From: an uncultured delta proteobacterium
GTDB taxonomy: Bacteria > Desulfobacterota > RBG-13-43-22
Length of the DNA: 64,000 nt
Assembly: GCA_963790475.1 (NCBI GenBank)
Contig: CAWBOS010000013.1
Span: forward strand, 160,001 to 224,000
Direction: 5' to 3'
How positions within the stretch are numbered: the first letter of the stretch is position 1; the number at the start of each line of letters is the position of its first letter. A program made the translations under genes and the position numbers. The notes beneath the pieces are model-generated. The model was given only the letters and a program-made list of their open reading frames with translations. It did no database searches and was not told the DNA's origin. Positions 575-17,510 of this stretch are shown here, piece after piece.

Positions 575-2827
575 ATGCCTCGATTGACTGAACAGGAACA
601 ACAAGAGATTATCCGCTATATTGAGGCCGACAAACCCCTGCCGGACAAGTACCGATTCTTATTGTTTGAAGACAAACGCGAAGTGGAGTTGGTCTGGAAT
701 GGGAAGACTAATGAGGTCTGCAACATCGTGTTGCCGTTTCAGGTGATCGAGCAGGTGGACGAGCCGCGGGCCGAAAAGCCGGCCGATACGGCGCTACAAA
801 TGGGCCTCTTCGACTCCCGGGGGCGTCAGCTAAAGGGGTGGACAAACAAGCTCATCTGGGGGGACAACAAGCTTATTCTCTCCTCCCTGAAGAACGGCCC
901 CTTGCGTGAGGAGATTGAGAAACAGGGCGGCATCAAGGTGATGTCTATTGATCCCCCCTTTGACGTAGGTGCGGATTTCTCCATGGATATTGAGATCGGT
1001 GACGACACCTTCACCAAAAAGCCCAACATTCTTGAAGAGATCGCCTACCGTGACACCTGGGGCAAGGGTGTGGATTCCTTCATCGCTATGATTTATGAGC
1101 GGCTAACACTGATGCGAGATCTCCTGGCTGAAGATGGCAGTATTTATGTCCATTGTGATTGGCATATTGGGCACAGTATTAAACTTGTGTTAGATGAGGT
1201 TTTTGGTGCGATTAATTTCAGAAATCATATTTCCTGGAAAAGGAGCACTCCGAGGGGTAATGCGAAAAATAAATATCCTGAATTAACGGATTTCATTCTT
1301 TTTTATTCAAAGTCTGAGGACACCATTTGGAATGACCAGTATACTGATTATAGGCCAGAATACATTGAAAAATACTATTCATATGTTGATGAGAAGACAG
1401 GAAAGAAGTTTCAACCTACAAGTTTGCTTGGGCATTCCGGCGTTAACCCAATTTATGAGTGGCGAGGCATCAAAAGACCTTGGAGATACCCAATAAACCG
1501 GCTCGAAGAGTTAGATATTCAAGGAAAGATTTATTGGCCTGAAGGAGAAGGTATCCCCAGGTTAAAACGTTTTTTTGATGAACAAAAAGGGGTACCAGTT
1601 CAGTCATTATGGGATGATATTCCACCTGTTAATTCTCAAGCGCTCGAAGATACAAAATACGCGACTCAAAAGCCCGAAGCCCTACTCGAACGCATCATTA
1701 AAGGCTCTTCAAATGAAGGCGATCTCGTTGCTGACCCTTTCGGTGGTTCTGGAACCTTGGCAGCGGTGGCGGAGAAATTAGGCCGCAAGTGGATTGTAGC
1801 CGACCTTGGCAAGTTCGCCATCCACACGACGCGCAAGCGGTTGATCGGCGTCCAGCGGCAACTGAAAGCCGAGGGTAAAGACTACCGCGCTTTTGAAATC
1901 CTAAACCTGGGCAAGTACGAGCGCCAACATTACATCGGTATCAATCCGAACCTACGTCAGGCAGAACAACAAAAACAACTGGAAGAAAAGGAAGCCGCGT
2001 TTCTCGACCTGATTCTACGTGCCTACCGGGCCGAGAAGACCGAGGGTTTTGCCGCGTTCCACGGCAAAAAAGCTGGACGGTTGGTGGCGGTGGGACCGGT
2101 CAATCTGCCGGTAACACGCCTGTTCGTTGAAGAAATCATTTTGGAATGCCGCAAAAAACATATTACAAAAGTGGACCTTCTCGGTTTTGAGTTTGAAATG
2201 GGGCTGTTCCCCAATGTATTGGATGAAGCCAGGGCCAAGGGCATCGACATTTCGCCTAAGTATATCCCCGCTGATGTCTTCGACAAACGGGCTGTGGAAA
2301 AGAATCAGGTGGTCTTCCATGACGTGGCCGCCATTGAAGTCAAGCCGCATGTCAAAAAAAATAATGTGGCGGTGGAGCTGACAGACTTTTCGGTTTTTTA
2401 TTCCCAGGATTCCATCGCCGGCGCCGAGGCCACGCTTAAGGACAAGGCCAGCAAGATCGTGGTGGAGAAGGGCCAGATCATTAAATTGATTAAGGACGCG
2501 AAGGGCCTCGTGAAACGGGAGTATTTGACTAAGAAGTGGACTGATTGGATTGATTACTGGGCGGTGGATTTCAACTTCGAAAACAAGCGAGAGATTATCC
2601 GCGTACAGAACGAGGAAAACGGTGAGTGGGAGGAGCGTTGGACTGGAGACTACATCTTTGAAAACGAGTGGCAGTCCTTCCGTACCAAGAAAGACCGCTC
2701 GCTGGAAATGACCAGCGTCTTTCACGAATGCCCGCCCGGACGGCGCAAGCTGGCGGTGAAGGTGGTGGATATTTTCGGCAACGACACCATGACCATTGTC
2801 GAAATCTCTGTGGGAGGGAAGAAATAA
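575..2827 (+). CDS. mod: Type III restriction-modification DNA methyltransferase (Mod)
   Basis: NKLIWGDN, IDPPF (motif IV), YATQKPEALLERII and DPFGGSGT (motif I) in beta-class order. An AT-rich central TRD lies at about 1150-1660. The stop overlaps the res start (TAATG). Confidence 0.9.
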   Translation: MPRLTEQEQQEIIRYIEADKPLPDKYRFLLFEDKREVELVWNGKTNEVCNIVLPFQVIEQVDEPRAEKPADTALQMGLFDSRGRQLKGWTNKLIWGDNKLILSSLKNGPLREEIEKQGGIKVMSIDPPFDVGADFSMDIEIGDDTFTKKPNILEEIAYRDTWGKGVDSFIAMIYERLTLMRDLLAEDGSIYVHCDWHIGHSIKLVLDEVFGAINFRNHISWKRSTPRGNAKNKYPELTDFILFYSKSEDTIWNDQYTDYRPEYIEKYYSYVDEKTGKKFQPTSLLGHSGVNPIYEWRGIKRPWRYPINRLEELDIQGKIYWPEGEGIPRLKRFFDEQKGVPVQSLWDDIPPVNSQALEDTKYATQKPEALLERIIKGSSNEGDLVADPFGGSGTLAAVAEKLGRKWIVADLGKFAIHTTRKRLIGVQRQLKAEGKDYRAFEILNLGKYERQHYIGINPNLRQAEQQKQLEEKEAAFLDLILRAYRAEKTEGFAAFHGKKAGRLVAVGPVNLPVTRLFVEEIILECRKKHITKVDLLGFEFEMGLFPNVLDEARAKGIDISPKYIPADVFDKRAVEKNQVVFHDVAAIEVKPHVKKNNVAVELTDFSVFYSQDSIAGAEATLKDKASKIVVEKGQIIKLIKDAKGLVKREYLTKKWTDWIDYWAVDFNFENKREIIRVQNEENGEWEERWTGDYIFENEWQSFRTKKDRSLEMTSVFHECPPGRRKLAVKVVDIFGNDTMTIVEISVGGKK

Positions 2828-5508
2828 TGGCCTTGCATAAAGACTTTCCTGAATCCCCCTACGATATTCTTGACCCGGTCTTGCGTTGGTTTCCGGCCGA
2901 CGAATCGTTGCGCGAGACCACGATGGAAAAACTGATACCCCCGTTGGTGTCGCAACTACGCAATAAGGTGAAGGAATGGCGGGACAGCAGTTATGCCGGG
3001 GCCACGGATACCAGCAAGAGTTTGCTTAAATGGTGGTTTATTACCCCACACCTGCTGCCCAAGGCTGACGGCACCATGACCGAGTTTCAGTATTACTTTG
3101 CCCAGCGCGAGGCGCTGGAGACGATTATCTATCTTTATGATGTGGTTGGCGTCCAAGACAAGTTTGATCTCATGCGCTTTGACAGTTCCGGCGCGGTTTC
3201 GGCCGGAATGTTCGATGAAACCTGGCGACGTTTTGTGGTAAAAATGGCGACCGGCTCCGGCAAGACCAAGGTGTTGAGTCTTGTTCTGGCTTGGAGTTTC
3301 TATCATAAGCTTTATGAACCGGGGTCGGAGTTGGCTCGGAATTTTCTGGTAATCACTCCTAATATTATCGTCCTGGATCGCATCTATAAGGATTTTAAGG
3401 GCCTTGATATCTTTTTTAAAGACCCGGTTATTCCCGACAATGGCGTGGGCGGACGGAACTGGCGCGATGATTTTCAACTGACCCTGCACGTGCAGGACGA
3501 GGTGCGGATTACCCGTCCCACCGGTAATATCTTTTTAACCAACATTCACCGTGTTTATGCCGGGAATGATATTCCCCCTTCTCCTGATGACGAAGACCTC
3601 CGGGATTATTTCCTGGGGAAGCGTCCCAGCGGCGCAACTACCGATTCCAAAGTTGACTTGGGAATGATCGTGCGCGACGTTGATGAGCTGGTGGTCTTGA
3701 ACGACGAGGCCCATCACATCCATGACCCTCGCATGGCTTGGTTCAAATCCATCGAGGACATCCATAATCGATTGAAACAAAAAGGCGCGGCTCTCTCCCT
3801 GCAAGTGGACACTACCGCCACCCCAAAACACAATAACGGGGCAATCTTCGTCCAGACGGTGGCCGATTATCCATTGGTTGAAGCAATCTCGCAAAACGTG
3901 GTTAAACACCCGGTCCTGCCCGATGCCCCCAGCCGTGCCAAATTAGTGGAACGTCAGAGCGCCAAATTCACCGAGAAATACACAGATTACATCCACCTCG
4001 GGGTGATCGAGTGGCGCAAGACGTATACCGAGCATGAAAAACTGGGCAAGAAGGCCATCCTGTTCGTTATGACGGACGATACCCGCAATTGCGACGACGT
4101 GGCTGAATACCTTGAAAATAATTATCCCGATCTGAAAAACGCAGTCTTGGTCATTCATACTAAGACCAATGGTGAGATTTCCGAATCAACCTCGGGCAAG
4201 AGCAAGGAAGAGTTGGACAAACTTCGTGAGCAGGCGAACATTATTGATGAACTGGACAGTCCTTACAAGGCTATCATATCCGTGATGGTGCTCAAAGAGG
4301 GTTGGGACGTGCGCAACGTTACCACCATTGTGGGTTTGCGGGCCTATTCCGCCCAAAGCAATATTTTGCCCGAACAAACCCTTGGTCGCGGATTAAGAAA
4401 AATGTACCCCGGCAGCGTGGAAGAATACGTCAGCGTAGTCGGAACCAATGCCTTTATGGAATTTGTTGAATCGATCCAGGCCGAAGGGGTGGTCCTGGAC
4501 CACAAGCCTATGGGCGAGGGGACAGGCCCCAAAACCCCCCTGGTTGTGGAGGTTGATAGAGACAATATCAAAAAGGACATCGAGGCGCTGGATATCGAAA
4601 TTCCGGTGCTGTCCCCGCGGATCTATCGGGAATATAAGAACCTTAGCAGCCTGGACGTAAGCGCGATTGGGCACCAACGTGTCTTATACCTTCAATTCAG
4701 CGAAGAGGAGCAACGGGAGATCGTCTTTAAGGACATCACCACCGGGGAGGTATCCCACACAACAATTTTGGATACAGGAGGTGTTGCCGATTACCGCAGC
4801 GTTATCGGCTTCTTCGCCCAATCCATTATGAAAGAATTGCGGCTGGTAGGCGGTTATGACGTTCTATATGGAAAGGTCAAGGCGTTTATCCGGGATGATC
4901 TGTTCGACAGGGAAGTGGACCTCGAAAGCCCAAACACCTTGCGAAACCTGTCAGAGCCGGCAGCAACGATGACTCTGATTGGGACCTTTAAAAAAGCGAT
5001 CAATGCTCTCACAGTCCAAGACAAAGGGGACGCTGAAATCCGCGATACTATCAAACTAAGGCAGACGAGGCCCTTTGTGGCGAAGGAGCAAAGCTACCTT
5101 ATCCCGAAAAAAAGCGTTTTTAATCGTATTATCGGCGATAGCCATTTTGAATTGCTATTCGCCCGGTTCTTGGAAGACTGCGAAGATGTGATTTCCTACG
5201 CCAAGAATTATTTGGCTGTTCATTTCAAGCTGGACTACGTTAATGCGGCCGGTGATATTTCCACCTACTATCCGGATTTTTTAGTAAAGCTATCCGATAA
5301 TCGCATGGTCATTGTTGAAACCAAGGGGCAGGAAGAATTAGACGTACCCCAAAAAATGGACCGTTTGCGGCAATGGTGTGAGGATATCAACCGCGTCCAG
5401 TCCGATGTAAGATATGGCTTTGTTTATGTGGACCAGGAAAGCTTTGAGAGATTCAAGCCGGTCTCATTCAGGCAATTGGTTGAAGGCTTCAGGGAATACA
5501 AAAAATAA
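2827..5508 (+). CDS. res: Type III restriction endonuclease/helicase subunit (Res)
   Basis: ATG at 2827 is coupled to the mod stop. SF2 motifs MATGSGKT, NDEAHH, TATP, LKEGWD and QTLGRGLR are present, with a C-terminal PD-(D/E)xK nuclease (YPDFLV...IVETKG). Confidence 0.9.
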   Translation: MALHKDFPESPYDILDPVLRWFPADESLRETTMEKLIPPLVSQLRNKVKEWRDSSYAGATDTSKSLLKWWFITPHLLPKADGTMTEFQYYFAQREALETIIYLYDVVGVQDKFDLMRFDSSGAVSAGMFDETWRRFVVKMATGSGKTKVLSLVLAWSFYHKLYEPGSELARNFLVITPNIIVLDRIYKDFKGLDIFFKDPVIPDNGVGGRNWRDDFQLTLHVQDEVRITRPTGNIFLTNIHRVYAGNDIPPSPDDEDLRDYFLGKRPSGATTDSKVDLGMIVRDVDELVVLNDEAHHIHDPRMAWFKSIEDIHNRLKQKGAALSLQVDTTATPKHNNGAIFVQTVADYPLVEAISQNVVKHPVLPDAPSRAKLVERQSAKFTEKYTDYIHLGVIEWRKTYTEHEKLGKKAILFVMTDDTRNCDDVAEYLENNYPDLKNAVLVIHTKTNGEISESTSGKSKEELDKLREQANIIDELDSPYKAIISVMVLKEGWDVRNVTTIVGLRAYSAQSNILPEQTLGRGLRKMYPGSVEEYVSVVGTNAFMEFVESIQAEGVVLDHKPMGEGTGPKTPLVVEVDRDNIKKDIEALDIEIPVLSPRIYREYKNLSSLDVSAIGHQRVLYLQFSEEEQREIVFKDITTGEVSHTTILDTGGVADYRSVIGFFAQSIMKELRLVGGYDVLYGKVKAFIRDDLFDREVDLESPNTLRNLSEPAATMTLIGTFKKAINALTVQDKGDAEIRDTIKLRQTRPFVAKEQSYLIPKKSVFNRIIGDSHFELLFARFLEDCEDVISYAKNYLAVHFKLDYVNAAGDISTYYPDFLVKLSDNRMVIVETKGQEELDVPQKMDRLRQWCEDINRVQSDVRYGFVYVDQESFERFKPVSFRQLVEGFREYKK

Positions 5509-5998: not shown

Positions 5999-7138
5999 AT
6001 GACGAGCCTATATAGTGATATACAGAAGGCAGATATAACTTCAGATCATTTTAAGAGTCCCACCCCAACCCCACCCCGTTACTATCAGACGCGGTTACGA
6101 TTCACCTCCCATCTTGAAGGAAGTTTAGAAGCGCTCGGAAAGATTTTGAAACGGTTGGCCGGAATGGACCTCCCGGGGAGAGATCAGGTAGCCGCCTATC
6201 TTCGCCACTTAACTCACGGCAATCGCCGACCGAGAACCCTGTACAGTCGGTTTGGCACCCTCGTTCTTTTTCTGGGACTGATACGGGACACCGGCAAAGG
6301 CTTTGAAGCCATTACCCGAAGTGATGTAGAGGCCTTTATCGAGCGAGAGCAGGACCGGGGGATTAAGATAACGACGATCAGGACCAGGCTGGTGAGTGTG
6401 CAGGCCTTTCTCCGCTATCTGGTGGAGGAAGGGATCGTTTCTGGGGATATATTCCGCAGTCGGAGGATACGGTTGCAGTTACCGGAGCGGCTGCCGCGGG
6501 CCATGGATCCTGACGATCTGCAGAAGCTGCTTTCCGTTATTCATGATATCCGTGACCGAGCTTTGATCCTGGTCTTGTTGCGGACTGGCCTGCGGATCGG
6601 CGAGTTGCTTCAGACCAAGATGACCGACGTCCATCTCCAGGAGCGGAAGATAGAGATTTACGAAGGGGAGAAGAACCGCCTGGGGAGGGTGGTCTATCTC
6701 AGCGACGATGCAGTTATAGCCCTGCGGAAGTGGTTGAAGAAGAGGAATCCCGGAGAGGAGTACCTGTTCTATGGGAAGAACGTCGAGACTTTGTGTTACA
6801 GCACCGCCCGGATCATCTTTCTGCGATATATATCCAAAGCGGGATTAGAGGGCAAGGGATATTCCCTGCATACCCTGCGTCACACCTTTGCCACGGAGTT
6901 GCTCAACGCCGGCATGCGTCTGGAGTGCCTCCAGGTATTGCTGGGACACCGGAGCATCGAGGAGACGCGACGTTATGCCCGGTTGACCGATAAGACCCGG
7001 GAGGAGGAGTATTTTAAGGCCATGTCGAAGATCGAGAGGAGGAAGAGTCATGATCGATGCGATCCTGAACTGGCGGCGATTTTTGAAGCGAAGGAACTGT
7101 TCGCCCCATTGCCTGAAGAACTATCTGAACCTCATTAA
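5999..7138 (+). CDS. Tyrosine recombinase (XerC/D-like)
   Basis: Catalytic set present: GLRIGE, GEKNR, HTLRHTFAT, LLGH, TRRYA, with a SAM-like N-terminal domain. Confidence 0.9.
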   Translation: MTSLYSDIQKADITSDHFKSPTPTPPRYYQTRLRFTSHLEGSLEALGKILKRLAGMDLPGRDQVAAYLRHLTHGNRRPRTLYSRFGTLVLFLGLIRDTGKGFEAITRSDVEAFIEREQDRGIKITTIRTRLVSVQAFLRYLVEEGIVSGDIFRSRRIRLQLPERLPRAMDPDDLQKLLSVIHDIRDRALILVLLRTGLRIGELLQTKMTDVHLQERKIEIYEGEKNRLGRVVYLSDDAVIALRKWLKKRNPGEEYLFYGKNVETLCYSTARIIFLRYISKAGLEGKGYSLHTLRHTFATELLNAGMRLECLQVLLGHRSIEETRRYARLTDKTREEEYFKAMSKIERRKSHDRCDPELAAIFEAKELFAPLPEELSEPH

Positions 7139-7937
7139 ACACTTTGTCATCTGGTTGGATGTGCCGGTGGAGGAGGTTACCTCTGCGGTCGTCTCCCGCT
7201 ACATTGAGCATCTGATGAGGAAGAGACTGGCGCCCAAGACAGTCAACTGTCACTTAAACGGCATCCGCCAGTTCTACCATTATCTGCGGGAGGAAGAAGG
7301 TCTGACCATCACCAATCCCATCAGGAAGCATCACTTCCAGAAGATGTCCAGGCCCCTTCCCCGGCACCTGAGAGATGAACAGGTGGAGACCTTCTTCCAG
7401 GCCATCAAGGGGGCCCGCGACCGGGCCATGTTCATGCTTATGCTTAGATGCGGGTTACGGGTGGAAGAAGTCGCCCATCTCACCATAGGCGTCATCGACG
7501 TCAAGCGCAGGACCATCCTGGTGGAAGACGGCAAGGGTGGAAAAGACCGGGTCGTCTATATGAGTCATGATGCCCTTCAGGCCCTGACCGCCTATCTGAG
7601 GGTGAGGCCTCTATCCAGAGCCAGTAGGATCTTTCTGGCGGAAAAGGCTCCCTGTAAGGGACAGCCCATTTCCATTCGTGGCATTCAGAGGCGCATGGAA
7701 TATTATGGCCGCCAAGCGAAGCTCAAGGTGTCCTGTCATCATCTTCGACACACCATGGCCACCCAGCTGCTCAACGCTGATGCCGATCTCTGCACCATCC
7801 AGGATCTCTTGGGTCATAGCAATGTGAAAACCACGCAACGGTACTGCCGGATATCAAACCTGAAAGTGCAGAGAGACTACTTCAAGGCCATGGAGGTGAT
7901 CAGGCTACAAACGGCTGGCAACCCAAATAATCCTTGA
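7050..7937 (+). CDS. Second tyrosine recombinase (XerC/D-like)
   Basis: GLRVEE, GKGGKDR, HHLRHTMAT, LLGH, TQRY. It overlaps the first gene, with an AGGAGG upstream of the ATG. Confidence 0.9.
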   Translation: MIDAILNWRRFLKRRNCSPHCLKNYLNLIKHFVIWLDVPVEEVTSAVVSRYIEHLMRKRLAPKTVNCHLNGIRQFYHYLREEEGLTITNPIRKHHFQKMSRPLPRHLRDEQVETFFQAIKGARDRAMFMLMLRCGLRVEEVAHLTIGVIDVKRRTILVEDGKGGKDRVVYMSHDALQALTAYLRVRPLSRASRIFLAEKAPCKGQPISIRGIQRRMEYYGRQAKLKVSCHHLRHTMATQLLNADADLCTIQDLLGHSNVKTTQRYCRISNLKVQRDYFKAMEVIRLQTAGNPNNP

Positions 7938-8183
7938 CAAAAGAACTAAACTATGAAATTTTAAACAGTACCTAACCCATTAACTTCAATAAGAAAATCA
8001 GACTTTAGTACGTATAGCTTCCTGTAGTCCGCAGATCTCTATTTTTGAAAAACCGCAAGAGTACGAACGGAAATCGTTAATAAAAATACCTTGTTATTTC
8101 AGGAAATTCAACAGATAATAAAGTATTCCCAACAAGTTTACCTATTTTTTGCTTTCAATCCCTCTCGATAGAATTGGAGAATA

Positions 8184-9605
8184 ATGAGCATACGGGATAC
8201 CATGAAGAAGCTATTGGGTGGTAAGCCCGTTGATATCGGTGAGCTTAATAGGCGAACAACACGGGAATCTTTGCAGAAGGTTCCTATCCCCGTACCCAAA
8301 AACCCTCTTGAAGGGATTCACATCACTGATGAATTTAGAACAGTCGAGTCTTTGCTTGATGCTGGCTACCCAGTAGTCTTCGTCTCTGGCAATGCTGGCA
8401 CGGGAAAGTCAACATTGATCCATTATCTACGAACTGTCCTAAAGAAGAAGTTGGTAGTTGTAGCCCCAACTGGTGTGGCTGCCCTGAACGTCGGCGGCGT
8501 TACAATTCATTCATTTTTCCATCTCCCCCCGAAGATCCACGAAGACGAAGATATCAAACTCGTATATGACAGGAGGCTTTACCAGAAACTAGACTTGCTT
8601 ATTATCGATGAAGTCTCAATGGTCCGATGTGATCTCATGGACAGCATTGACAATTTCCTCAAAAAGAATAGGGCGAACAATGACCCCTTCGGTGGCGTTC
8701 AATTGCTACTGATTGGCGACCTCTTTCAATTGCCGCCTGTCGTTCCTAGGCAGGAAATGGTTATATTAAAAGAGAAGGGATACTTCAGCCCTTACTTCTT
8801 TAGTTCGTTTAGCCTGCAGAAAAGTTCCCTGGTTCCCATTGAGCTTACATTTGTCTATAGACAAGAGGACTCCTTTTTCGTATCTCTGCTGAATAGTTTG
8901 CGGATAGGGGAGAACGTAGATTTAGCAACTGCCGAGGTCAATTCCCGGTGTTATTGGAACGGAGATGTATCTACAGACATCACTCTGACTTGCACGAACA
9001 TAAGGGCTGACCAAATCAACATGGATGAATTGCACCAGATACTTGAAAGAGAGTATGCCTTCAAAGGCGAAATCAAAGGACGGTTCTCTCTTGAAGAAGA
9101 CAAACTGCCTTCCCCGCTTGACCTAAGGTTGAAAGTCGGTGCACGAGTTATGTTCACCAAGAACGACGATCACCGAAGGTGGGTCAATGGAACTCTCGGT
9201 ATCATACGACATATAGACCAAAAATCAATCGGCGTTGAACTTGTTACTGATCAGAAAGGGTCAAACTTTGATGTTCAAAGGGTTACATGGGAGACATACA
9301 AGTATGCCTACAGCCCCGAGAAGGACCAGATACTTGCGAAAAAAGTAGGCGAGTACACACAGTATCCCTTAATGCTGGCATGGGCCGTCACTATACACAA
9401 GAGTCAAGGCAAGACCCTGAAAAACGTCCTGGTTGATCTGGGCAATGGTGCATTTACTTCTGGCCAGGTCTACGTGGCGCTTAGTCGTTGTCGATCTATA
9501 AAAGACATCCGTCTCGCACGTCCACTTCGGAATACAGACGTGAAATGTGATCCTTTGATTAAAAGATTCTACCTAACTTTGGATGAAATGAAAAAGAGAA
9601 TGTGA
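8184..9605 (+). CDS. PIF1/RecD-like SF1B DNA helicase
   Basis: GNAGTGKS, APTGVAA, TIHSFF, IIDEVSM, GDLFQLPPV, YPLMLAWAVTIHKSQG, YVALSR. Confidence 0.9.
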   Translation: MSIRDTMKKLLGGKPVDIGELNRRTTRESLQKVPIPVPKNPLEGIHITDEFRTVESLLDAGYPVVFVSGNAGTGKSTLIHYLRTVLKKKLVVVAPTGVAALNVGGVTIHSFFHLPPKIHEDEDIKLVYDRRLYQKLDLLIIDEVSMVRCDLMDSIDNFLKKNRANNDPFGGVQLLLIGDLFQLPPVVPRQEMVILKEKGYFSPYFFSSFSLQKSSLVPIELTFVYRQEDSFFVSLLNSLRIGENVDLATAEVNSRCYWNGDVSTDITLTCTNIRADQINMDELHQILEREYAFKGEIKGRFSLEEDKLPSPLDLRLKVGARVMFTKNDDHRRWVNGTLGIIRHIDQKSIGVELVTDQKGSNFDVQRVTWETYKYAYSPEKDQILAKKVGEYTQYPLMLAWAVTIHKSQGKTLKNVLVDLGNGAFTSGQVYVALSRCRSIKDIRLARPLRNTDVKCDPLIKRFYLTLDEMKKRM

Positions 9606-9609
9606 TTTA

Positions 9610-10390
9610 ATGGAAAATTATTCAGACCACCTAATGCCCGAAGAGAAAGAACTTTTTGAAAAAAAGAAGGAATTAACAGTTCTTGAAGAAGAGTTGTTCC
9701 AGCAGGAGTTGGATTTGGCAACGACAAAGGCCGATCTTCTGGTATATGAAGGGAAGTATATTCGTATTGTTGGTAGCCTTTATGCAGAACTTGATGAGAT
9801 AGAGGCCCAAATATCTGAAGCAGAAGCAAACCTTGACCTTAATAACAAAGAGACTTTATTTAAAGCCAAAGAGGCCCGTCGAAAGGCACAAGAATCCCAC
9901 GAGGCTACCACATCTGCCATAATAGAAAAGGCACAAAAAAAATTCCGGCCATCAGATGAAATTAAAAAACTTTATCGTCAGGCGGCTAAAGCTATGCATC
10001 CGGATTTGTCAACAGACGAAAAGTCACACACTATACGAAAACAAATGATGGCTGAAGTAAACCTCGCTTACGAAGAAGGAAGCGAAGAAAAGCTGTGTGA
10101 AATTTTAAGACGGTGGGAAACTAGTCCGGATTCTGTTGAGGGGGAAGGGGTTGGAGCGGAGCTAATTAGAATAATCAGAAAAATTACTCAAATAAAGGAT
10201 CGATTAAAGGCTATTAAAGTTGAAATTTCGGATTTAGAGAAATCAGAATCTTTGGAAGTTAAAGGAAGAAATCAAAAAAGCAGAAAAAGAGGGAAGAGAT
10301 CTTCTTAAGGAAATGGCCGATAGACTATATGATCAAATACTGTCGGCAAGAGCCAGATTAAAAAATGTGAATATAAAAACCAGTGGTTAA
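9610..10390 (+). CDS. Coiled-coil J-domain (HPD) protein; apparent +1 frameshift near 10248
   Basis: KKLYRQAAKAMHPDL...MAEVNLAYEEG is a J-domain. The ORF track ends it at 10308. Removing one A near 10248 gives ...SDLWKLKEEIKKAEKEGRDLLKEMADRL...KTSG*, ending at TAA 10388-10390, which overlaps the next ATG (TAATG). Confidence 0.75.
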
Positions 10391-12045
10391 TGGTTAATGG
10401 AATGACTGATAATACTGAAAAGCAAACAAGTTTAATCTCCTTAAGCAAGTTAGAAATAGCAAAATATTCTCAAGGCTTAATTAAAAGGGGGATAGAGTTA
10501 ACTAAGGAGATAAATTTACAAGTCATAAAGAGCGCAAATGACTATTTTGACGTAGGGATAGGATGCTATGAAAAGAAAGATTTTGAGGGGGCTATTGCAA
10601 ATTTTACGAAATCGATTGCAATAGATGTTGATTTTTCTCAAGCCTACCTATATCGGGGGAAAGCTTTTTGTTATAGAACAAATAAAGAATGGAAAGCTGA
10701 ATACACAAATTTAATAGTCAAAGGAAGTTATGTTAAAGACGACAATGACCCTTTTGTTTTTAGTTCACGGCTAACTCACTTGGATACTTTCAATAATGTC
10801 TGTTTTTATTTACTCCAAGGGATTTGTTTTATGCAAGATATTTCCGGGGATGATAATGCACCTAATCGGCCTAATGGAGAAAAATTTGAAATATCCTCTG
10901 ATGATTTATTTTCTTATTTTGCAAAGCCAATAGTTCCTATGCGTGTTAAATCTGTCAATATTTTTTTGGCTTCTCCTGCAAAGATTGAAGGGAATTCTTT
11001 TGGTGAGATAAAAACGCCTGATACTCTTATCAAAATCAGATTGGGGCAGATAGATCGAAGACCATTCCGGTCTAAATATAGTTATAAGCCAAAAATGAAG
11101 GGATTATTTTGTTGTAGGATATTTGGGCCTATTAAGGACTATGAGTGTATTTGTGGCAAATACAATCTGATGAAGCACCGCGGAGTTGTCTGCGAAAAGT
11201 GTAGGGTTGAGGTCATTCAGTCCAAGGCCAGGCGACAGCGCATGGGACATATTAAGCTGACAATTCCAGTGGTCCACACTTGGTTTCTTAAATATCTCCC
11301 TTATCAAATTGACATACTTTTGGATATGCCAAGAGAGGAATTAGAAAAAATAATCTATTATAACTCATGGATTGTTCTTGACCCTCGTCAAACATCACTT
11401 AAGAGAAGAGAAGTGCTGGATAAAGAGGGATATAAACAGGTTATAAAGAATTATGGTTTTAATTCATGTGAAATGAGTTCGGGGGCTGAGGCAGTTAAAA
11501 GATTACTTGAAGAGTTAGATCTTAAAAAAACAACCGACCAAATACTATCAGACATTAATAAAACAAATTCAGAAATAAAAAAGACTTTTCTAAAGACAAG
11601 ATTGGAGACTATTAATTATTTCATTAGAACAGGAGTTAAACCGGAATGGATAATTCTTAACGTTTTGCCTATAATACCACCAGGTTATAGGCCGCTCTTC
11701 CCAGATAGTTTTGAAATAAGTCTCAATCATCATTACAAAGTTGTCATTAACCAGAATAATTATTTGAAGCGATTACTTGATCAAAATCTCCCTGAGGCAA
11801 TTATTACGATGGCGAAAAAAACCCTTCAGAGGTCTGTCGATGCTCTTTTTGAGAACGAGCAATTTGGAAAAGATCCAAGGGATTATGAACAAGCTATTTC
11901 TGATTTTGATACTTTTATGAGATTAGAACCCAACAGAGAAGAGCCGTATTTTTATCGAGGAGTATTTTTTTTAGAAAGAGGGAGGATTGATGAGGCGTTT
12001 AAAGATTTAAATCATATATCATCTTTTAGAAAGAAAGAAGATTGA
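10390..12045 (+). CDS. TPR protein with an inserted RNA polymerase beta' (RpoC) N-terminal/clamp domain
   Basis: TPR motifs at both ends. About 10900-11859 aligns by eye with RpoC residues ~1-310: LASP..I...SFGEIK.P, GLFC.RIFGP.KDYEC.CGKY...KHRGVVCEKC.VEV, RR.RMGHI.L, GAEAV, KPEW.IL.VLP..PP..RPL, NN.LKRLLD, LQ..VDAL. Confidence 0.9.
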   Translation: MVNGMTDNTEKQTSLISLSKLEIAKYSQGLIKRGIELTKEINLQVIKSANDYFDVGIGCYEKKDFEGAIANFTKSIAIDVDFSQAYLYRGKAFCYRTNKEWKAEYTNLIVKGSYVKDDNDPFVFSSRLTHLDTFNNVCFYLLQGICFMQDISGDDNAPNRPNGEKFEISSDDLFSYFAKPIVPMRVKSVNIFLASPAKIEGNSFGEIKTPDTLIKIRLGQIDRRPFRSKYSYKPKMKGLFCCRIFGPIKDYECICGKYNLMKHRGVVCEKCRVEVIQSKARRQRMGHIKLTIPVVHTWFLKYLPYQIDILLDMPREELEKIIYYNSWIVLDPRQTSLKRREVLDKEGYKQVIKNYGFNSCEMSSGAEAVKRLLEELDLKKTTDQILSDINKTNSEIKKTFLKTRLETINYFIRTGVKPEWIILNVLPIIPPGYRPLFPDSFEISLNHHYKVVINQNNYLKRLLDQNLPEAIITMAKKTLQRSVDALFENEQFGKDPRDYEQAISDFDTFMRLEPNREEPYFYRGVFFLERGRIDEAFKDLNHISSFRKKED

Positions 12046-12204
12046 TGAAGCGTTTGCGGATTTAAACATTTAACATCGCTAAAATAGAATTGGTTCAACA
12101 AGAAAAGTTTGGATTTGTTCAAAAAGTAAGCGACTATTTATTAAGTTTTTGGAAAAGAAACGGATTCAGTCAAGATATTGACCCGAGATTAAAAGGCAAG
12201 CAAA

Positions 12205-13053
12205 ATGGAGTTTGTAGATTGTCGTAAATGCGGGTTTAAAAATCCTCTTCCTATCTATGAGATGATATGCGGTAATTGCGGATATCGTCTTTACCTTGGT
12301 CGAAATGCTCAATATGTAGAAAGGGAACTTACGCAAGGTACGCCCACGTGGCATGATTGGCGAAGAGAAGGAATAGGTGCGTCGGAAGCGCCTACTGCTA
12401 TGGGCGTGTCTAAGTTTATGTCTATTGAGAAGTTGGTAAAGATTAAGACCGGAAAGACGCCCGAACCGCCTTCAAATAAATATATGAGTCGAGGGAAAGA
12501 ACTGGAGAAACCTGCAAGGGAATTGTATATCAAAAAGACAGGCATAACCGTTCATCCGTCATGTCTTGAATCGCTTGACCGGGGATGGATGAGAGCAAGC
12601 CTGGACGGATGGTCAAAAGAAAACCATCTCGTAGTCGAAATCAAGTGTCCGCAGGGAGAGAAAGACCACTCGCAAGCACTTAGGGGAAAAGTTCCAGAGC
12701 ATTACTATCCACAACTTCAACACATTCTTGCGGTAACTGGCTTTTCAGAGATTGACTATTGGAGCTTTCGGAAAGGTAAGGGAGTCCTCCTGAAAGTTAA
12801 GAGGGATGAGAATTATATCCAAAAACTTATTTCGACTGAAGTGAAGATATGGCATAGAATTACATCGGATAAAAATTTTAATAGTGGCAGCAAAGTTGTT
12901 TTAACCTGCCCAAATCCAAGTTGTTCAAAAGGGCTGAAGGTCTCAACTGGTGGAGATTTACCAAGGAGGGTATTTGTCTGTATGCACTGCGGGATTGAAT
13001 TTGAATTATATGAGAGTCCTTGGGGTATCAAGCCTCGTATCAAATCTAATTAG
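12205..13053 (+). CDS. YqaJ / lambda-exonuclease-family PD-(D/E)xK nuclease with N- and C-terminal Zn ribbons
   Basis: QGTPTWHDWRREGIGASEA, RGKELEKPAR, ASLDG...VEIKCP and YYPQLQH. Cys clusters CRKC..CGNC (N-terminal) and CPNPSC..CMHC (C-terminal). Confidence 0.85.
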   Translation: MEFVDCRKCGFKNPLPIYEMICGNCGYRLYLGRNAQYVERELTQGTPTWHDWRREGIGASEAPTAMGVSKFMSIEKLVKIKTGKTPEPPSNKYMSRGKELEKPARELYIKKTGITVHPSCLESLDRGWMRASLDGWSKENHLVVEIKCPQGEKDHSQALRGKVPEHYYPQLQHILAVTGFSEIDYWSFRKGKGVLLKVKRDENYIQKLISTEVKIWHRITSDKNFNSGSKVVLTCPNPSCSKGLKVSTGGDLPRRVFVCMHCGIEFELYESPWGIKPRIKSN

Positions 13054-13895
13054 TGTCCATCCGGAAGTGGACTTTCCCATATCATATAGATAGGGTTGGG
13101 GTATTGAGCGTGGATATGAAAATCCTGGATAATCTGAGCTACGTTCCGATTGGTAGATGCATATACTGCGGAGATACTGAAGACCTGCAGAAAGAACATA
13201 TCCTCCCATTCGGTTTAGGGGGCACTACCGTTTTGCCAGATTCAACATGTAGAGAGTGCGCGAAAATTACAGGGCAGGTGGAGCAGAAGGTCCTCCGCGG
13301 TCCAATGTGGGGTCTACGGATTTACCGAGGACTAAAGTCCAGAACAAAACATGAAGAGGCTCCTAAATGTTACCCCCTTAAAATCATAAAGAACGGAGCG
13401 GAACAGTTAGTTGAACTGTCTATCAATGAATTCCCCATAATGTTGCATTTTCCGATTTTTGAACCGCCTGCATATCTGAATCCAAATGCCTATAAAAAAG
13501 GCATCTTGGTGAGCGGTGTTGTTACCGTTTCTTTCGGGCCACGCCCCGAAGAAGTTGCTCGGACATTAGGTGCCAAATCTATCTCTATTAGCCAAGACCA
13601 GGAACCAGTTGCATTTGCCCGCATGATAGCCAAAATAGCGTATTCTTGGGCGGCAGCAGAGGGCAAACTTGATCTTTTGCGAGGCGCTTCTCCAGTTGTC
13701 TCAGCTATTTTGGGCAAGACAGACGATATCGGTCGCTGGGTTGGTACGGTTACTGATCACATACAGAAGCATAACGGTTTGCTGCACCGTATACTGATTC
13801 ATGAAGATGACGACAGGCACCTTCTAATCGGGGAGGTCCACCTGTTCAGTGACTCTGAAACGCCCAAATATGGAGTAATCCTTGGTGAAATCTAA
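13053..13895 (+). CDS. HNH endonuclease-like protein (alternative start ATG 13116)
   Basis: CIYCG...KEHILP..LGG.....CRECA is a zinc-bound HNH N-terminus. The GTG overlaps the upstream stop. Confidence 0.75.
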   Translation: MSIRKWTFPYHIDRVGVLSVDMKILDNLSYVPIGRCIYCGDTEDLQKEHILPFGLGGTTVLPDSTCRECAKITGQVEQKVLRGPMWGLRIYRGLKSRTKHEEAPKCYPLKIIKNGAEQLVELSINEFPIMLHFPIFEPPAYLNPNAYKKGILVSGVVTVSFGPRPEEVARTLGAKSISISQDQEPVAFARMIAKIAYSWAAAEGKLDLLRGASPVVSAILGKTDDIGRWVGTVTDHIQKHNGLLHRILIHEDDDRHLLIGEVHLFSDSETPKYGVILGEI

Positions 13896-15764: not shown

Positions 15765-16065
15765 AGATCTGTTTTTGGCAACTTTCGCCCGGCTCAAAGC
15801 CGGATAAAAAATCCTTTTCAGCATATAGGGTTGAAGATGGAAGCAGATAGGTAAACGCGGAAAAATAAAGTTTTAAGTAGTGGCATGTGGTTCTTTTCTC
15901 AAACGTCATTTTAAAATTTGGACGATTCTGGCTGATTTCTAATGAGAATCATTGGCAAAACATCCTAACAAGAATTCATATCCTATAATGTCCAAATACA
16001 CTTAACAAAACGGTATGGGTCCTCCTGGATTTTATCAGTGATTCCGCTTGAGGGGAAACCGTTGA

Positions 16066-16770
16066 GAGATGCCTCTACATAGCGGCGGAGCTTCTTCTTG
16101 GCCCGTTTGGTATCGAACTCCGGGTCACCCTCAATTTTCTTAATCAGCTTATAATAGCTTTCCACAGGCGCATAAGTTTCGAGAACGTCCAGAATAAATT
16201 TTTCCTGAATAGCCTGTTTCATGGTGTAACTGTGAAGAGGGCGGTGTTTGATTTTACCGCCCAGTTCATAACCCTCGCCGAAAATTTCAAGGGTCTTATT
16301 CTTTGGCGTGGCCGTAAAGGCAAAATAACTCGCATTAGACAGGAGCTTCCGGGCCTCCATGATGCGGTTGATTTTATCCTCTGTGGTTTAACCATCTTCT
16401 TCTGCCCCGGTTGTGGATAGTGCTGCGCTTACCGCCGCTGAGGTTTTGCCGCCCTGACTCGAATGGGCCTCATCGATGATGATAGCAAAGTTGTTCCCCC
16501 GTTGCTCGTTCCCGATTTCGTCGAGGATATAAGGGAACTTTTGGACCGTGGAGATAATGATTTTCTTGCCGCTTTTAATAAACCTGCGCAAATCTCCCGA
16601 ATGCTCGGCATGTCCAACCGTCGCCCCCACCTGGGCGAACTGCTTGATGGTATCACCGATCTGTTTGTCGAGGATCCGCCGGTCCGTAACGACGATGATC
16701 GAATCAAAGACGACCTTATCGTTTATAGTAAGGCCGATGAGCTGATGGGCGAGCCAGGCGATGGAACAAC
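16066..16770 (-). pseudogene. hsdR: Internal fragment of Type I restriction subunit R
   Basis: SIAWLAHQL, VVTDRRILDKQ, STVQKFP, IIDEAHSSQ, FAFTATPK and YTMKQAIQEKFILDVL. There is an in-frame TAA at 16388-16390, and both ends are missing. Confidence 0.85.
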
Positions 16771-16907
16771 TCCGGGCTGTGGCTTTTATCACCGGGCAAA
16801 CTCTTCGAGCAGTTGATAGCTCTTTCCAGATAACCTGTCTGGTGTCATCTTCTGCTACGGGACCGTGTTGAAATAAATCAGACATATTACAAAAGTCTCT
16901 GTCATTT

Positions 16908-17510
16908 TTACCGATCGTAGCCGGAACAAGGGATGCAGACATGTTTTTCGCCCAGAACCCGGAGATAGGCCTTGGCCGTCAGCTCCCCGCAAACGGCGCA
17001 GGGGGTGAACCCCATTATTTCGGGAAACCAATCACCTTCGTATTGTTTGACTTCACCGATGGTAAGGACATCAGACTCCGGGGCATCCCAGACGAGATTT
17101 ACCAGCTCTTCCTGCTCTTCAAGGGGAATGTCGTCGGGCATGATGCCCATCCCCCGTTTACGCATAAAGGCCGATTCGCCAATCTGTTTTTGCAACGTGG
17201 GTTTATAGCTGACCCGTACAGAGCGGTTGGTAGCCTTGTCAATGAGGGTGAAAGCAAGCTTGCCAAGGGGTTTTTTGTTGATGTTGCCCTTGCCGAAAGT
17301 GCAACCGGTGGCATACTGGACACCGTCGCCAAAGCACATCCCGCCATGGTCCTCCCCGATCTCTACGATACCGAAAAGCTGTGTGCCGCCGGAGCGCTTC
17401 ACGCCCAACGTCCGCAAAGCCGCCAGCCCGACACGCACACCCGCTACGCTGGCCCAGCACTTATGTCCGTGAAATTTCAATGCGTCCATCAAGATTACTT
17501 TGTCATCCAT
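16908..17510 (-). CDS. FmdE/FwdE family metal-binding protein
   Basis: FHGHKC, CFGDGVQ..TGCTFGKGN and a C-terminal CxxC...CxxC zinc finger. Confidence 0.85.
   Translation of the reverse strand: MDDKVILMDALKFHGHKCWASVAGVRVGLAALRTLGVKRSGGTQLFGIVEIGEDHGGMCFGDGVQYATGCTFGKGNINKKPLGKLAFTLIDKATNRSVRVSYKPTLQKQIGESAFMRKRGMGIMPDDIPLEEQEELVNLVWDAPESDVLTIGEVKQYEGDWFPEIMGFTPCAVCGELTAKAYLRVLGEKHVCIPCSGYDR

Follow-up and report, generated by a model that had tools for sequence, protein, structure and literature searches.

A tetratricopeptide-repeat protein with an inserted, remodelled RNA polymerase clamp, encoded beside a J-domain gene

We analysed a window of 64,000 nucleotides from the genome of an uncultured delta proteobacterium (assembly GCA_963790475.1, contig CAWBOS010000013.1, forward-strand positions 160,001 to 224,000) and concentrated on the open reading frame (ORF) at 10390..12045 (+; all positions are those of the window). 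This ORF encodes a 551-aa protein composed of an N-terminal leader, tetratricopeptide repeats (TPR), an insert that corresponds to the N-terminal clamp of the RNA polymerase (RNAP) beta' subunit, RpoC, and further TPR, an architecture that is unprecedented in the data searched. The reading we favour, to which we give roughly an even chance, is that the protein is a selected cargo member of a module made of a J-domain gene and a leader-bearing protein, and that its TPR array carries the inserted, remodelled rpoC clamp as a binding module.

The clamp-bearing protein and its RpoC-derived insert

The ORF is uninterrupted over 551 aa and the remaining five frames hold 28-72 stops; the chance of a 551-codon open frame at such composition is about 9e-21. 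An alternative start lies at 10402 (database copy P0001). The G+C content around the ORF is 35%, compared with ~49% genome-wide. Pfam places RNA_pol_Rpb1_1 (PF04997) at residues 206-494 (E 8.9e-41; 140.7 bits, cut-off 39.7), which makes the protein a bearer of this domain, and TPR_2 identifies it as a TPR protein with a marginal whole-protein score of 28.3 bits (cut-off 27; best stretch, residues 51-79), TPR models of lower score matching residues 496-542. A sequence-only reading of this DNA had described an intact AT-rich 551-aa ORF with RpoC sequence between TPRs and had expected Pfam to find RNA_pol_Rpb1_1 there; the ORF check, Pfam and BLASTP all agree with it, with TPR matches on either side of residues 206-494.

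The leader (residues 5-40; 10402..10509, +), a conserved feature absent from that reading, ends in the motif L-[IV]-x-R-G-[LI] and is common to proteins encoded 3' of related J-domain genes. It is followed by TPR1 and TPR2 (residues 49 to about 116; 10534..10737, +; Pfam TPR_2 at 51-79, TPR_11 at 59-93), helix B of TPR2 being degenerate. Residues 96-170 (10675..10899, +), within which the N-side border of the insertion falls, may be degenerate TPR helices together with a linker, their origin being uncertain; they match no Pfam family even at E 10, and residues 58-149 gave a single weak BLASTP match to a TPR array (E 0.047). The captured RpoC N-terminus (residues 171-494; 10900..11871, +) comprises the N-terminal segment, zipper, zinc-binding domain, clamp core, lid and clamp helices. 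The C-terminal TPR piece (11872..12042, +) consists of an orphan helix B, one full TPR and a capping helix, recognised in isolation by Pfam TPR_2, TPR_9 and TPR_16 and by BLASTP to the TPR array of locus L041 (E 1.6e-5).

Two leader-bearing proteins from Calothrix and Nostoc, each with a long TPR array, match the TPR part of the ORF (BLASTP E 3e-11 and 3e-10) and align with it before and after the insert, as far as the C-terminal capping helix; judged by these alignments, they look like the uninterrupted form of the clamp-bearing protein. The second TPR had been proposed to be split after helix A. TPR pieces do flank the insert, and the split TPR may be another one: TPR2 is possibly completed by a helix predicted at 98-111, and the orphan helix B at 497-513 may have its true partner in a helix-A-like segment at 134-147, both structural models being of low confidence in this region.

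In a BLASTP comparison with the rpoC of the same genome, residues 171-494 match the very start of beta' (157/328 identical), and residues 186-494 align to beta' 17-314 of the E. coli chains in the Protein Data Bank (E 1.4e-86). The insert equals E. coli beta' ~2-314, with homology beginning at rpoC codon 2-3, and is 48-53% identical to rpoC of the host's family. Its extent had been given as beta' ~1-310; the assignment to the clamp holds, and the end lies slightly further, at about E. coli 314. The NADFDGD active site is absent, as had been noted, since Pfam shows domain 1 only and homology ends at E. coli 314, and the captured clamp cannot polymerise RNA. With 303.4 bits, the match to the rpoC_TIGR equivalog model stays below the cut-off of 963.5, so the protein is not a functional full-length RpoC; a separate full-length rpoC, expected elsewhere by the sequence-only reading, is present as a 1390-aa open frame on contig C15 of the same genome.

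Column conservation was scored on 39 rpoC sequences from several phyla, which yielded 113 invariant columns. The insert keeps 81/113 of these and has changed 32/113, and by these universally conserved clamp residues it is again not a functional RpoC. Retention of the majority residue falls with column conservation, from 72% at invariant columns through 53%, 44% and 43% to 17% at the most variable ones (6/35), and at the invariant columns it differs by residue (glycine or proline, 19/21; cysteine, 5/5; charged residues, 18/32). Changes are sparsest in the zinc-binding region 241-290 (5/34 invariant columns), where the four zinc-binding cysteines C253, C255, C268 and C271 (11146..11202, +), the best-conserved part of the insert, are all kept as had been stated. 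In the clamp helices 14/32 invariant columns are changed, compared with 18/81 elsewhere (Fisher p 0.036, post hoc). Relative to every rpoC sequence compared, the insert also has a 14-aa insertion in the zipper region (residues 214-227; 11029..11070, +), and alignment to E. coli beta' reveals a lid shortened by 4 residues (431-446) and remodelled clamp helices (447-489), together at 11680..11856 (+). The alignments thus indicate that fold-determining residues and the zinc site are kept and that zipper, lid and clamp helices appear to have been remodelled after capture. Retention of this kind would be that of a fold maintained while enzyme-specific surfaces are released.

Isolated beta' coiled-coil or N-terminal fragments reportedly dock sigma-70 region 2.2 in vitro, and the boundaries of the insert are nearly equal to those of the N-terminal fragment reportedly sufficient to bind sigma-70, which offers a precedent for a self-standing binding module. 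The residues at the docking surface differ. With numbering hand-counted from the alignment, E. coli R270, R271, R275, R278, R293 and N294 are replaced by K, V, Q, Y, T and M, and E295, R297, M298, E301 and A302 by A, K, T, R and S. Sigma region 2 binds the clamp helices, according to a passage in PMC12000874, and R275Q, E295K and A302D in E. coli beta' lead to deficient holoenzyme formation, according to a passage in PMC8321222. Because the insert reads Q, A and S at R275, E295 and A302, canonical binding of a housekeeping sigma factor is doubtful and has probably been lost. The earlier description of the insert as an RNAP mimic therefore stands as to the captured clamp, while a faithful docking surface for sigma and NusG is weakened by the 14/32 changed clamp-helix columns, which include positions linked to holoenzyme deficiency.

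AlphaFold2 (AF2) models are confident only in the clamp core (about 310-420) and the coiled coil; in model 2 the predicted local distance difference test (pLDDT) exceeds 90 at about 50-100 and is about 70 at 496-546. A Foldseek comparison of the model with beta' chains gave E about 5e-16 and a probability of 1.00, yet a TMq of 0.25 and a root-mean-square deviation of 21-24 A.

Reality of the fusion, selection and distribution

Logan contigs bridge position 10674 in runs X1 and X6, which belong to different studies, and position 10900 in X1, a run that may be the source sample. Contigs of the second study match 10553-10716 with 0 differences; X6 record 29 (10876-11036) reaches only 24 nt to the left of 10900 and was not counted as bridging. 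In two further studies, stretches of 258-264 nt are 98.5-98.9% identical to the diverged clamp, so that the sequence is present at 96-100% identity in the data of four studies. Runs X3, X4 and X7, whose word shares are small, do not enter into this count. Two X1 contigs join at 10836-10839 with an overlap of just 4 nt. A pile of contigs at 11118-11245 was rejected, being rpoC zinc-domain DNA of other organisms; this zinc-domain DNA, the least diverged at the DNA level, attracts rpoC contigs of others at >=80% identity in all four runs.

The base composition of the gene is uniform: the TPR, linker, clamp and C-terminal pieces have G+C fractions of 0.32-0.36, compared with 0.50 for the 5' end of the genome's own rpoC, and G+C at third codon positions is 0.32 in the insert, 0.19-0.31 in the flanks and 0.58 in that rpoC 5' end. 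This full amelioration to the composition of the host gene points to an old fusion. With 32/113 invariant columns changed and a flank-like composition, the insert is not a working rpoC mis-joined by the assembler, and the possibility of a chimera with a real rpoC, raised by the sequence-only reading itself, is countered by these two properties and by the contigs bridging the N-side.

We then compared the insert with neutral expectation. When neutral decay was simulated from the genome's own rpoC under AT bias to 51% aa identity, 0/400 sequences remained open (mean 10.2 stops). Against 8 rpoC genes, the nonsynonymous difference is 0.31-0.33 and synonymous sites are saturated (0.77-0.995); a comparison by dN/dS, which had been suggested earlier, thus shows nonsynonymous below synonymous difference, but the ratio proper is not computable because of this saturation. 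The simulations, together with retention that tracks conservation, uphold the earlier view of a domesticated clamp whose frame is held open by selection. Neutral decay is rejected on these sequence comparisons, and the ORF is a real gene that looks kept by selection. Variants listed in other runs number 5, with 3 nonsynonymous and 2 synonymous changes.

In the rpoC tree the insert has a branch of 7.57 against a median of 0.24, and its placement is without resolution. A clade of the insert with the host family is not rejected (approximately unbiased test, p-AU 0.50), which is no proof of the donor, and there was a single diagnostic column. The insert and rpoC of the host's family have the N-terminal motif DLFSYFAKP in common. 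By these comparisons the donor was probably from the host's own phylum, and the shared motif hints at a donor from the host's family. The codons just 5' of the insert resemble the ribosome-binding-site/GTG region upstream of rpoC in genus g3, a stretch too short to weigh.

The clamp-bearing protein was a singleton in every collection searched. Against 5.8 billion clustered proteins, the 120 matches listed for the full protein were 119 rpoC fragments (<=49% identity) and the protein itself, and its N-terminal 175 aa found just itself and one generic TPR protein. The same architecture was not found in JGI metagenome contigs (one generic TPR match), in GTDB species genomes or in IMG/VR; 40 related genomes gave their own rpoC only, and the 34 matches in phage records, all <60% identical, were bacterial rpoC in mislabelled records or phage multisubunit polymerases. 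The search for homologs proposed earlier thus returned near-identical pieces in contigs of three other studies and no relative with the TPR-clamp architecture in the collections searched. No other protein with an RNAP clamp piece as a foreign domain was found among the matches listed from the 5.8 billion clustered sequences. The titles, abstracts and passages covered in the literature likewise showed no clamp domain outside RNAP, in keeping with the earlier statement that no described system of this architecture was known, supplementary tables (including those of PMC7159879) lying outside this search.

Two kinds of candidate were rejected. Short PF04997-only proteins on long contigs might have been stand-alone clamps, but 6/6 inspected run into normal beta' past residue 314, after which the protein ends in a tail that is out of frame in 4 and short and divergent in 1; since beta' continues past 314 and tails then run out of frame, they are broken rpoC. 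In the related genome G017 a second rpoC-like match is not a TPR fusion either; it belongs to a broken-up rpoB-rpoC copy that includes NADFDGD. This copy (L013, G017:C19, ~7000-13350, minus strand) lies in many short frames, with the zinc domain and NADFDGD among its pieces; the intact rpoC of G017 is on a different contig, and the broken copy is a pseudogene, a contaminant contig or the product of an error-rich assembly.

The upstream J-domain gene and the leader family

Directly upstream of the ORF lies a J-domain co-chaperone gene (9610..10390, +), whose product has a coiled coil, a J domain with the HPD motif and a helical tail. Pfam DnaJ scores 25.7 bits on it, under the cut-off of 27.8, NCBIfam gives a weak DnaJ match only, and in the ESM Atlas it matches solely unnamed J-domain clusters; the HPD motif is found in 81/81 proteins of the family. 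The called ORF ends at 10308. From ~10247 the +1 frame encodes the conserved C-terminal tail of the family and stops at TAA 10388-10390, where the restored stop overlaps the ATG of the clamp-bearing ORF at 10390 as TAATG. A Logan contig of run X1 is one base shorter at 10247, which would restore the frame; the frameshift is either an assembly error or a very recent mutation.

Relatives of the J protein numbered 98 in species genomes, and 80 loci were kept for comparison. The sequence-only reading had treated 8184-13895 as one functional unit, which includes Pif1-like helicase, YqaJ and HNH genes. That unit is not borne out: relatives of these three genes stand beside 0/80 J relatives, so the block is not a conserved unit, and the conserved pair consists instead of the J gene and the gene with the N-terminal leader. 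The module was found in none of 40 related genomes, and this absence, the low G+C and the flanking tyrosine recombinases argue for horizontal acquisition.

A leader-bearing ORF stands beside the J gene at 17/20 of the closest loci and 27/80 overall, almost always directly downstream and overlapping the J stop codon. The leader opens with a short acidic segment, which is followed by a hydrophobic patch resembling LVP and by the motif S-S-x-L-V-x-R-G-L; it belongs to no Pfam family. A leader hidden Markov model (HMM) built without the window's sequence ranks the ORF 1st of 39,831 frames of its own genome, with the match at the N-terminus, and a profile that includes it gives the ORF 45 bits (E 5.7e-7 over 1.84 billion proteins). 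The ORF thus has both properties of the family, an N-terminal leader with the motif and a position directly 3' of a J gene, overlapping it when the frame is restored. Among 1.84 billion representative proteins, 222 clusters reach E<=0.001 with the profile; of the 150 listed, 146 have a match starting at residue 5 or earlier. No description of the J-leader module was found in the titles, abstracts and passages covered by our literature search, supplements lying outside it. The J-leader gene pair is conserved across many phyla, in at least 222 clusters, and is apparently undescribed.

The leader is joined to a varied cargo. Among 94 representatives of >=140 aa, 21 have leucine-rich repeats (LRR), about 15 TPR and 12 WD40, and in the 5.8-billion-protein search Sel1 repeats and GAF/REC-GGDEF dominate; single partners carry ankyrin, FGE-sulfatase, or uracil-DNA glycosylase (UDG) plus FGE-sulfatase domains. 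PF04997 occurs as cargo in the window's protein only. The closest leader, that of the L034 partner from a Syntrophaceae metagenome-assembled genome (MAG; BLASTP 54% identity over 39 aa, E 8e-6), is fused to Sigma70 regions 1.2, 2 and 4.

Individual loci vary around this theme. At L034:4564-7871 the J domain forms the C-terminal part of an 847-aa ORF with a superfamily 1 (SF1) helicase (AAA_11/AAA_12), with a HEPN gene upstream and lon downstream of the J / sigma-factor pair, and at L035:1647-2792, in a Deltaproteobacteria MAG, the J-matching ORF also carries a DnaB_C helicase domain. In an Acidobacteriota MAG (L090:9-9255) the J-leader pair lies ~300 nt downstream of rpoB-rpoC; this may be coincidence, and it shows that the module can adjoin rpoC. 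The cargo there is a 500-aa leader protein whose database match has response-regulator and GGDEF domains. The partner at L050:1129-2796, with uracil-DNA-glycosylase-superfamily and FGE-sulfatase domains, is another cargo of housekeeping type.

Proposed function, rival explanations and genomic setting

J domains with HPD stimulate the Hsp70 ATPase, and DnaK/DnaJ control sigma-32. Based on the findings above, we propose that a DNA-level insertion placed the initial ~314 codons of an rpoC in the short TPR array of a leader protein, and that the J protein, with its invariant HPD, would couple the leader-bearing protein to the host DnaK. The translational coupling of the J gene to a leader-tagged gene suggests that the leader joins the cargo to the J protein or to DnaK. 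The TPR-plus-clamp body would then bind a partner that docks on the RNAP clamp, or that resembles such a docker, a transcription factor and a mobile-element or phage protein being the candidates; recognition would be expected through the features that are kept, namely the N-terminal segment together with the zinc-binding domain, and the coiled coil in its general shape. The partner might be sequestered or passed to DnaK; alternatively, the cargo protein might be held inactive by DnaK until chaperone capacity is titrated. The cargo repertoire, in most cases repeats that bind proteins and in some an output such as a diguanylate cyclase or a sigma factor, fits either a client adaptor to DnaK or, by analogy with sigma-32, a chaperone-gated protein.

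Several observations weigh against this proposal. The pairing is not universal, 53/80 J loci having no adjacent leader ORF, and the leader HMM built without the ORF gives it 14.8 bits and a genome-wide E of 0.018, which is modest. The binding of the leader to the J protein or DnaK is our proposal, drawn from sequence, and a predicted complex of the J protein with leader residues 1-60 scored 0.02 (mark 0.32), which speaks neither for nor against it. The called J gene is frameshifted near 10247, about 140 nt before its end, and if the shift is real the module may be damaged. As the clamp-bearing protein is a singleton, branch-specific dN/dS and co-evolution are beyond measure. The selection tests assume that the divergence came after the piece left rpoC, an assumption supported by the 32 changed invariant residues, and the Logan contigs leave 11833-12039 uncovered, so that the C-side junction near 11870 is unsupported by them. 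Residues ~104-300 have a pLDDT below 50 in both AF2 models, which consequently give no view on whether the TPR halves rejoin, and the poor global superposition on beta' makes a clamp-like quaternary arrangement only putative. Finally, a sigma factor or NusG paralogue was not found in the window's contig region.

Could the protein be no functional entity at all? A chimeric contig of a TPR gene and an rpoC read would be favoured by a 20-contig assembly with 9.68% estimated contamination, by at least one probable 1-nt error nearby, at 10247, and by the uncovered C-side junction. However, the insert is no organism's working rpoC, given the 32 changed invariants, the 14-aa insertion and the short lid; its composition equals that of its flanks, both junctions are in frame, and independent Logan contigs bridge 10674 (X1, X6) and 10900 (X1), which makes an assembly artefact very unlikely. 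A single chance event that put an rpoC fragment into a TPR gene, where it is tolerated and drifts, fits the singleton status, the branch of 7.57 against a median of 0.24, the 32/113 changed invariant columns, the frameshifted partner gene and the 3 nonsynonymous against 2 synonymous changes among the 5 listed variants. Such a functionless accident is nevertheless disfavoured by the selection tests, and we hold it improbable: 0/400 neutral simulations stayed open, residue retention tracks structural importance, the ameliorated composition makes the fusion old, and the sequence persists at 96-100% identity in the data of four studies.

Other functions are conceivable as well. Phage proteins target the RNAP clamp region, and the clamp could be an integrated decoy that baits RNAP-hijacking phage proteins while the neighbouring helicase and nucleases (8184-13895) execute defence. 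The low-GC block indeed lies near two integrases, a type III restriction-modification pair and HsdR-like fragments, the leader-family cargo (LRR, TPR, WD40, Sel1, FGE-sulfatase) is of the sensor kinds of nucleotide-binding leucine-rich-repeat (NLR)-like systems, and the N-terminal segment and zinc-binding domain are the better-kept surfaces. Precedents come from three papers, in which a decoy role in the conflict systems of prokaryotes is proposed for inactive domains of host origin (Kaur et al. 2020, PMC7159879), an integrated-decoy hypothesis is put forward for the bacterial NLR-related protein bNACHT11 (PMC11702601), and a bacterial NLR-related sensor requires the host DnaJ (PMC12169576); the words RNA polymerase have 0 occurrences in the main text of PMC7159879, whose source-data tables, possibly listing related cases, lie outside that count. 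Yet relatives of Pif1, YqaJ and HNH stand near 0/80 J relatives, PADLOC matches neither the protein nor YqaJ nor HNH and no defence family recurs around 25 module loci, and the clamp helices, a main docking site, have 14/32 invariant columns changed. The protein does have the homology to a host target, the RNAP clamp, that is looked for in an NLR with an integrated domain, but it is neither fused to nor paired with a signalling NTPase, and Pfam and NCBIfam show in it no NTPase and no effector or signalling domain. The phage-decoy model is possible, and we regard it as unlikely. A variant that we find rather improbable takes J-leader pairs as an Hsp70-powered counterpart of NLR and STAND proteins, in which DnaK would provide the NTPase switch and the cargo an exchangeable sensor or output; the clamp would here be a decoy trapping phage or mobile-element proteins that attack the N-terminal/zinc region, with no titration of host sigma, and signalling or sequestration dependent on DnaK would follow. 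As unlikely as the phage decoy is a mobile-element tool, which together with the helicase and J protein would act, to the advantage of an integrative element, on host transcription or on replication-transcription encounters, perhaps by binding a clamp-using host factor. Replication of lambda and P1 depends on DnaK/DnaJ remodelling of helicase or initiator complexes. Dda/Pif1-like helicase, lambda-exonuclease-family and HNH genes lie near integrases, with PHROG assignments to phage DNA metabolism; the J domain is fused to an SF1 helicase in L034 and to DnaB_C in L035, and the absence of the module from the 40 related genomes bespeaks horizontal acquisition. On the other hand, most J-leader modules are not beside helicases or mobile-element genes, searches of viral contig and phage collections gave no relative, and with no attachment site or tRNA in 1-30000 the borders of such an element are undefined.

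Compared with known systems, the insert resembles the beta' N-terminal clamp (PF04997) in its zinc cysteines, clamp core, coiled coil and start at codon 2-3, and differs from RpoC in ending at ~314, in having no active site, in being embedded in another protein and in being without the C-terminal beta' piece and beta C-terminus of the clamp. With integrated decoys of plant NLRs and prokaryotic decoy effectors, the clamp-bearing protein shares a catalytically useless host-machinery domain on a repeat protein and membership of a variable-cargo family; unlike them it is without STAND/NB-ARC, MoxR-vWA or GTPase components, and its sole conserved partner is a J-domain protein. The E. coli djlB/djlC-hscC cluster, with its Sel1-repeat genes ybeQ/ybeT, represents specialised J co-chaperones. 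To these and to DnaJ/DnaK-sigma-32 the module is alike in HPD and TPR/Sel1 partners, one leader-family member being a sigma factor, but it has no dedicated Hsp70 gene. The kinds to which our system belongs, specialised J-domain co-chaperone modules and host-derived captured domains, are already known, and the architecture itself is new in the data searched. If the clamp piece still binds, it would be a natural probe for clamp-docking factors (sigma, NusG-like proteins, phage regulators). The J-leader pair may matter more than the clamp fusion, as it suggests a general route to place proteins under Hsp70 control.

Around the J gene and the clamp-bearing ORF the window contains further genes of the same orientation. 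A Pif1/Dda-like SF1B helicase gene (8184..9605, +; Pfam PIF1 E 8.9e-30; PHROG Dda-like helicase) ends 4 nt upstream of the J gene and is context, possibly linked to it. Downstream, in the same low-GC block, follow a YqaJ/lambda-exonuclease-family gene and an HNH_5 gene (12205..13895, +), which are not conserved partners; the YqaJ-family protein (12205-13053) has CxxC pairs at both ends, zinc-ribbon-like, with weak IBR and Cas12f TNB matches. The left edge of the block is formed by two tyrosine recombinase genes (5999..7937, +; Pfam Phage_integrase E about 1e-38 each), which at 5999-7138 and 7050-7937 overlap by about 90 nt; no tRNA or attachment site was found in 1-30000.

PADLOC-DB v2 found 0 families for the clamp protein, YqaJ and HNH, and hence no membership of a defence system, a weak unrelated match for the J protein and generic helicase matches only for the helicase. 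Among 144 neighbours from 25 module loci, PADLOC matches were scattered, with no family in >2 of 144. Promoter and terminator scans were at chance level (18 vs 14.4 expected and 6 vs 6.1, respectively). Left of the integrases, 575-5508 holds a type III restriction-modification pair (N6_N4_Mtase and a ResIII helicase with a TnsA-like/endonuclease C-terminus), and on the right, at 15983-16942, SWI2_SNF2/ResIII pieces are spread over two adjoining short ORFs, apparently the remains of a broken type I/III restriction subunit.

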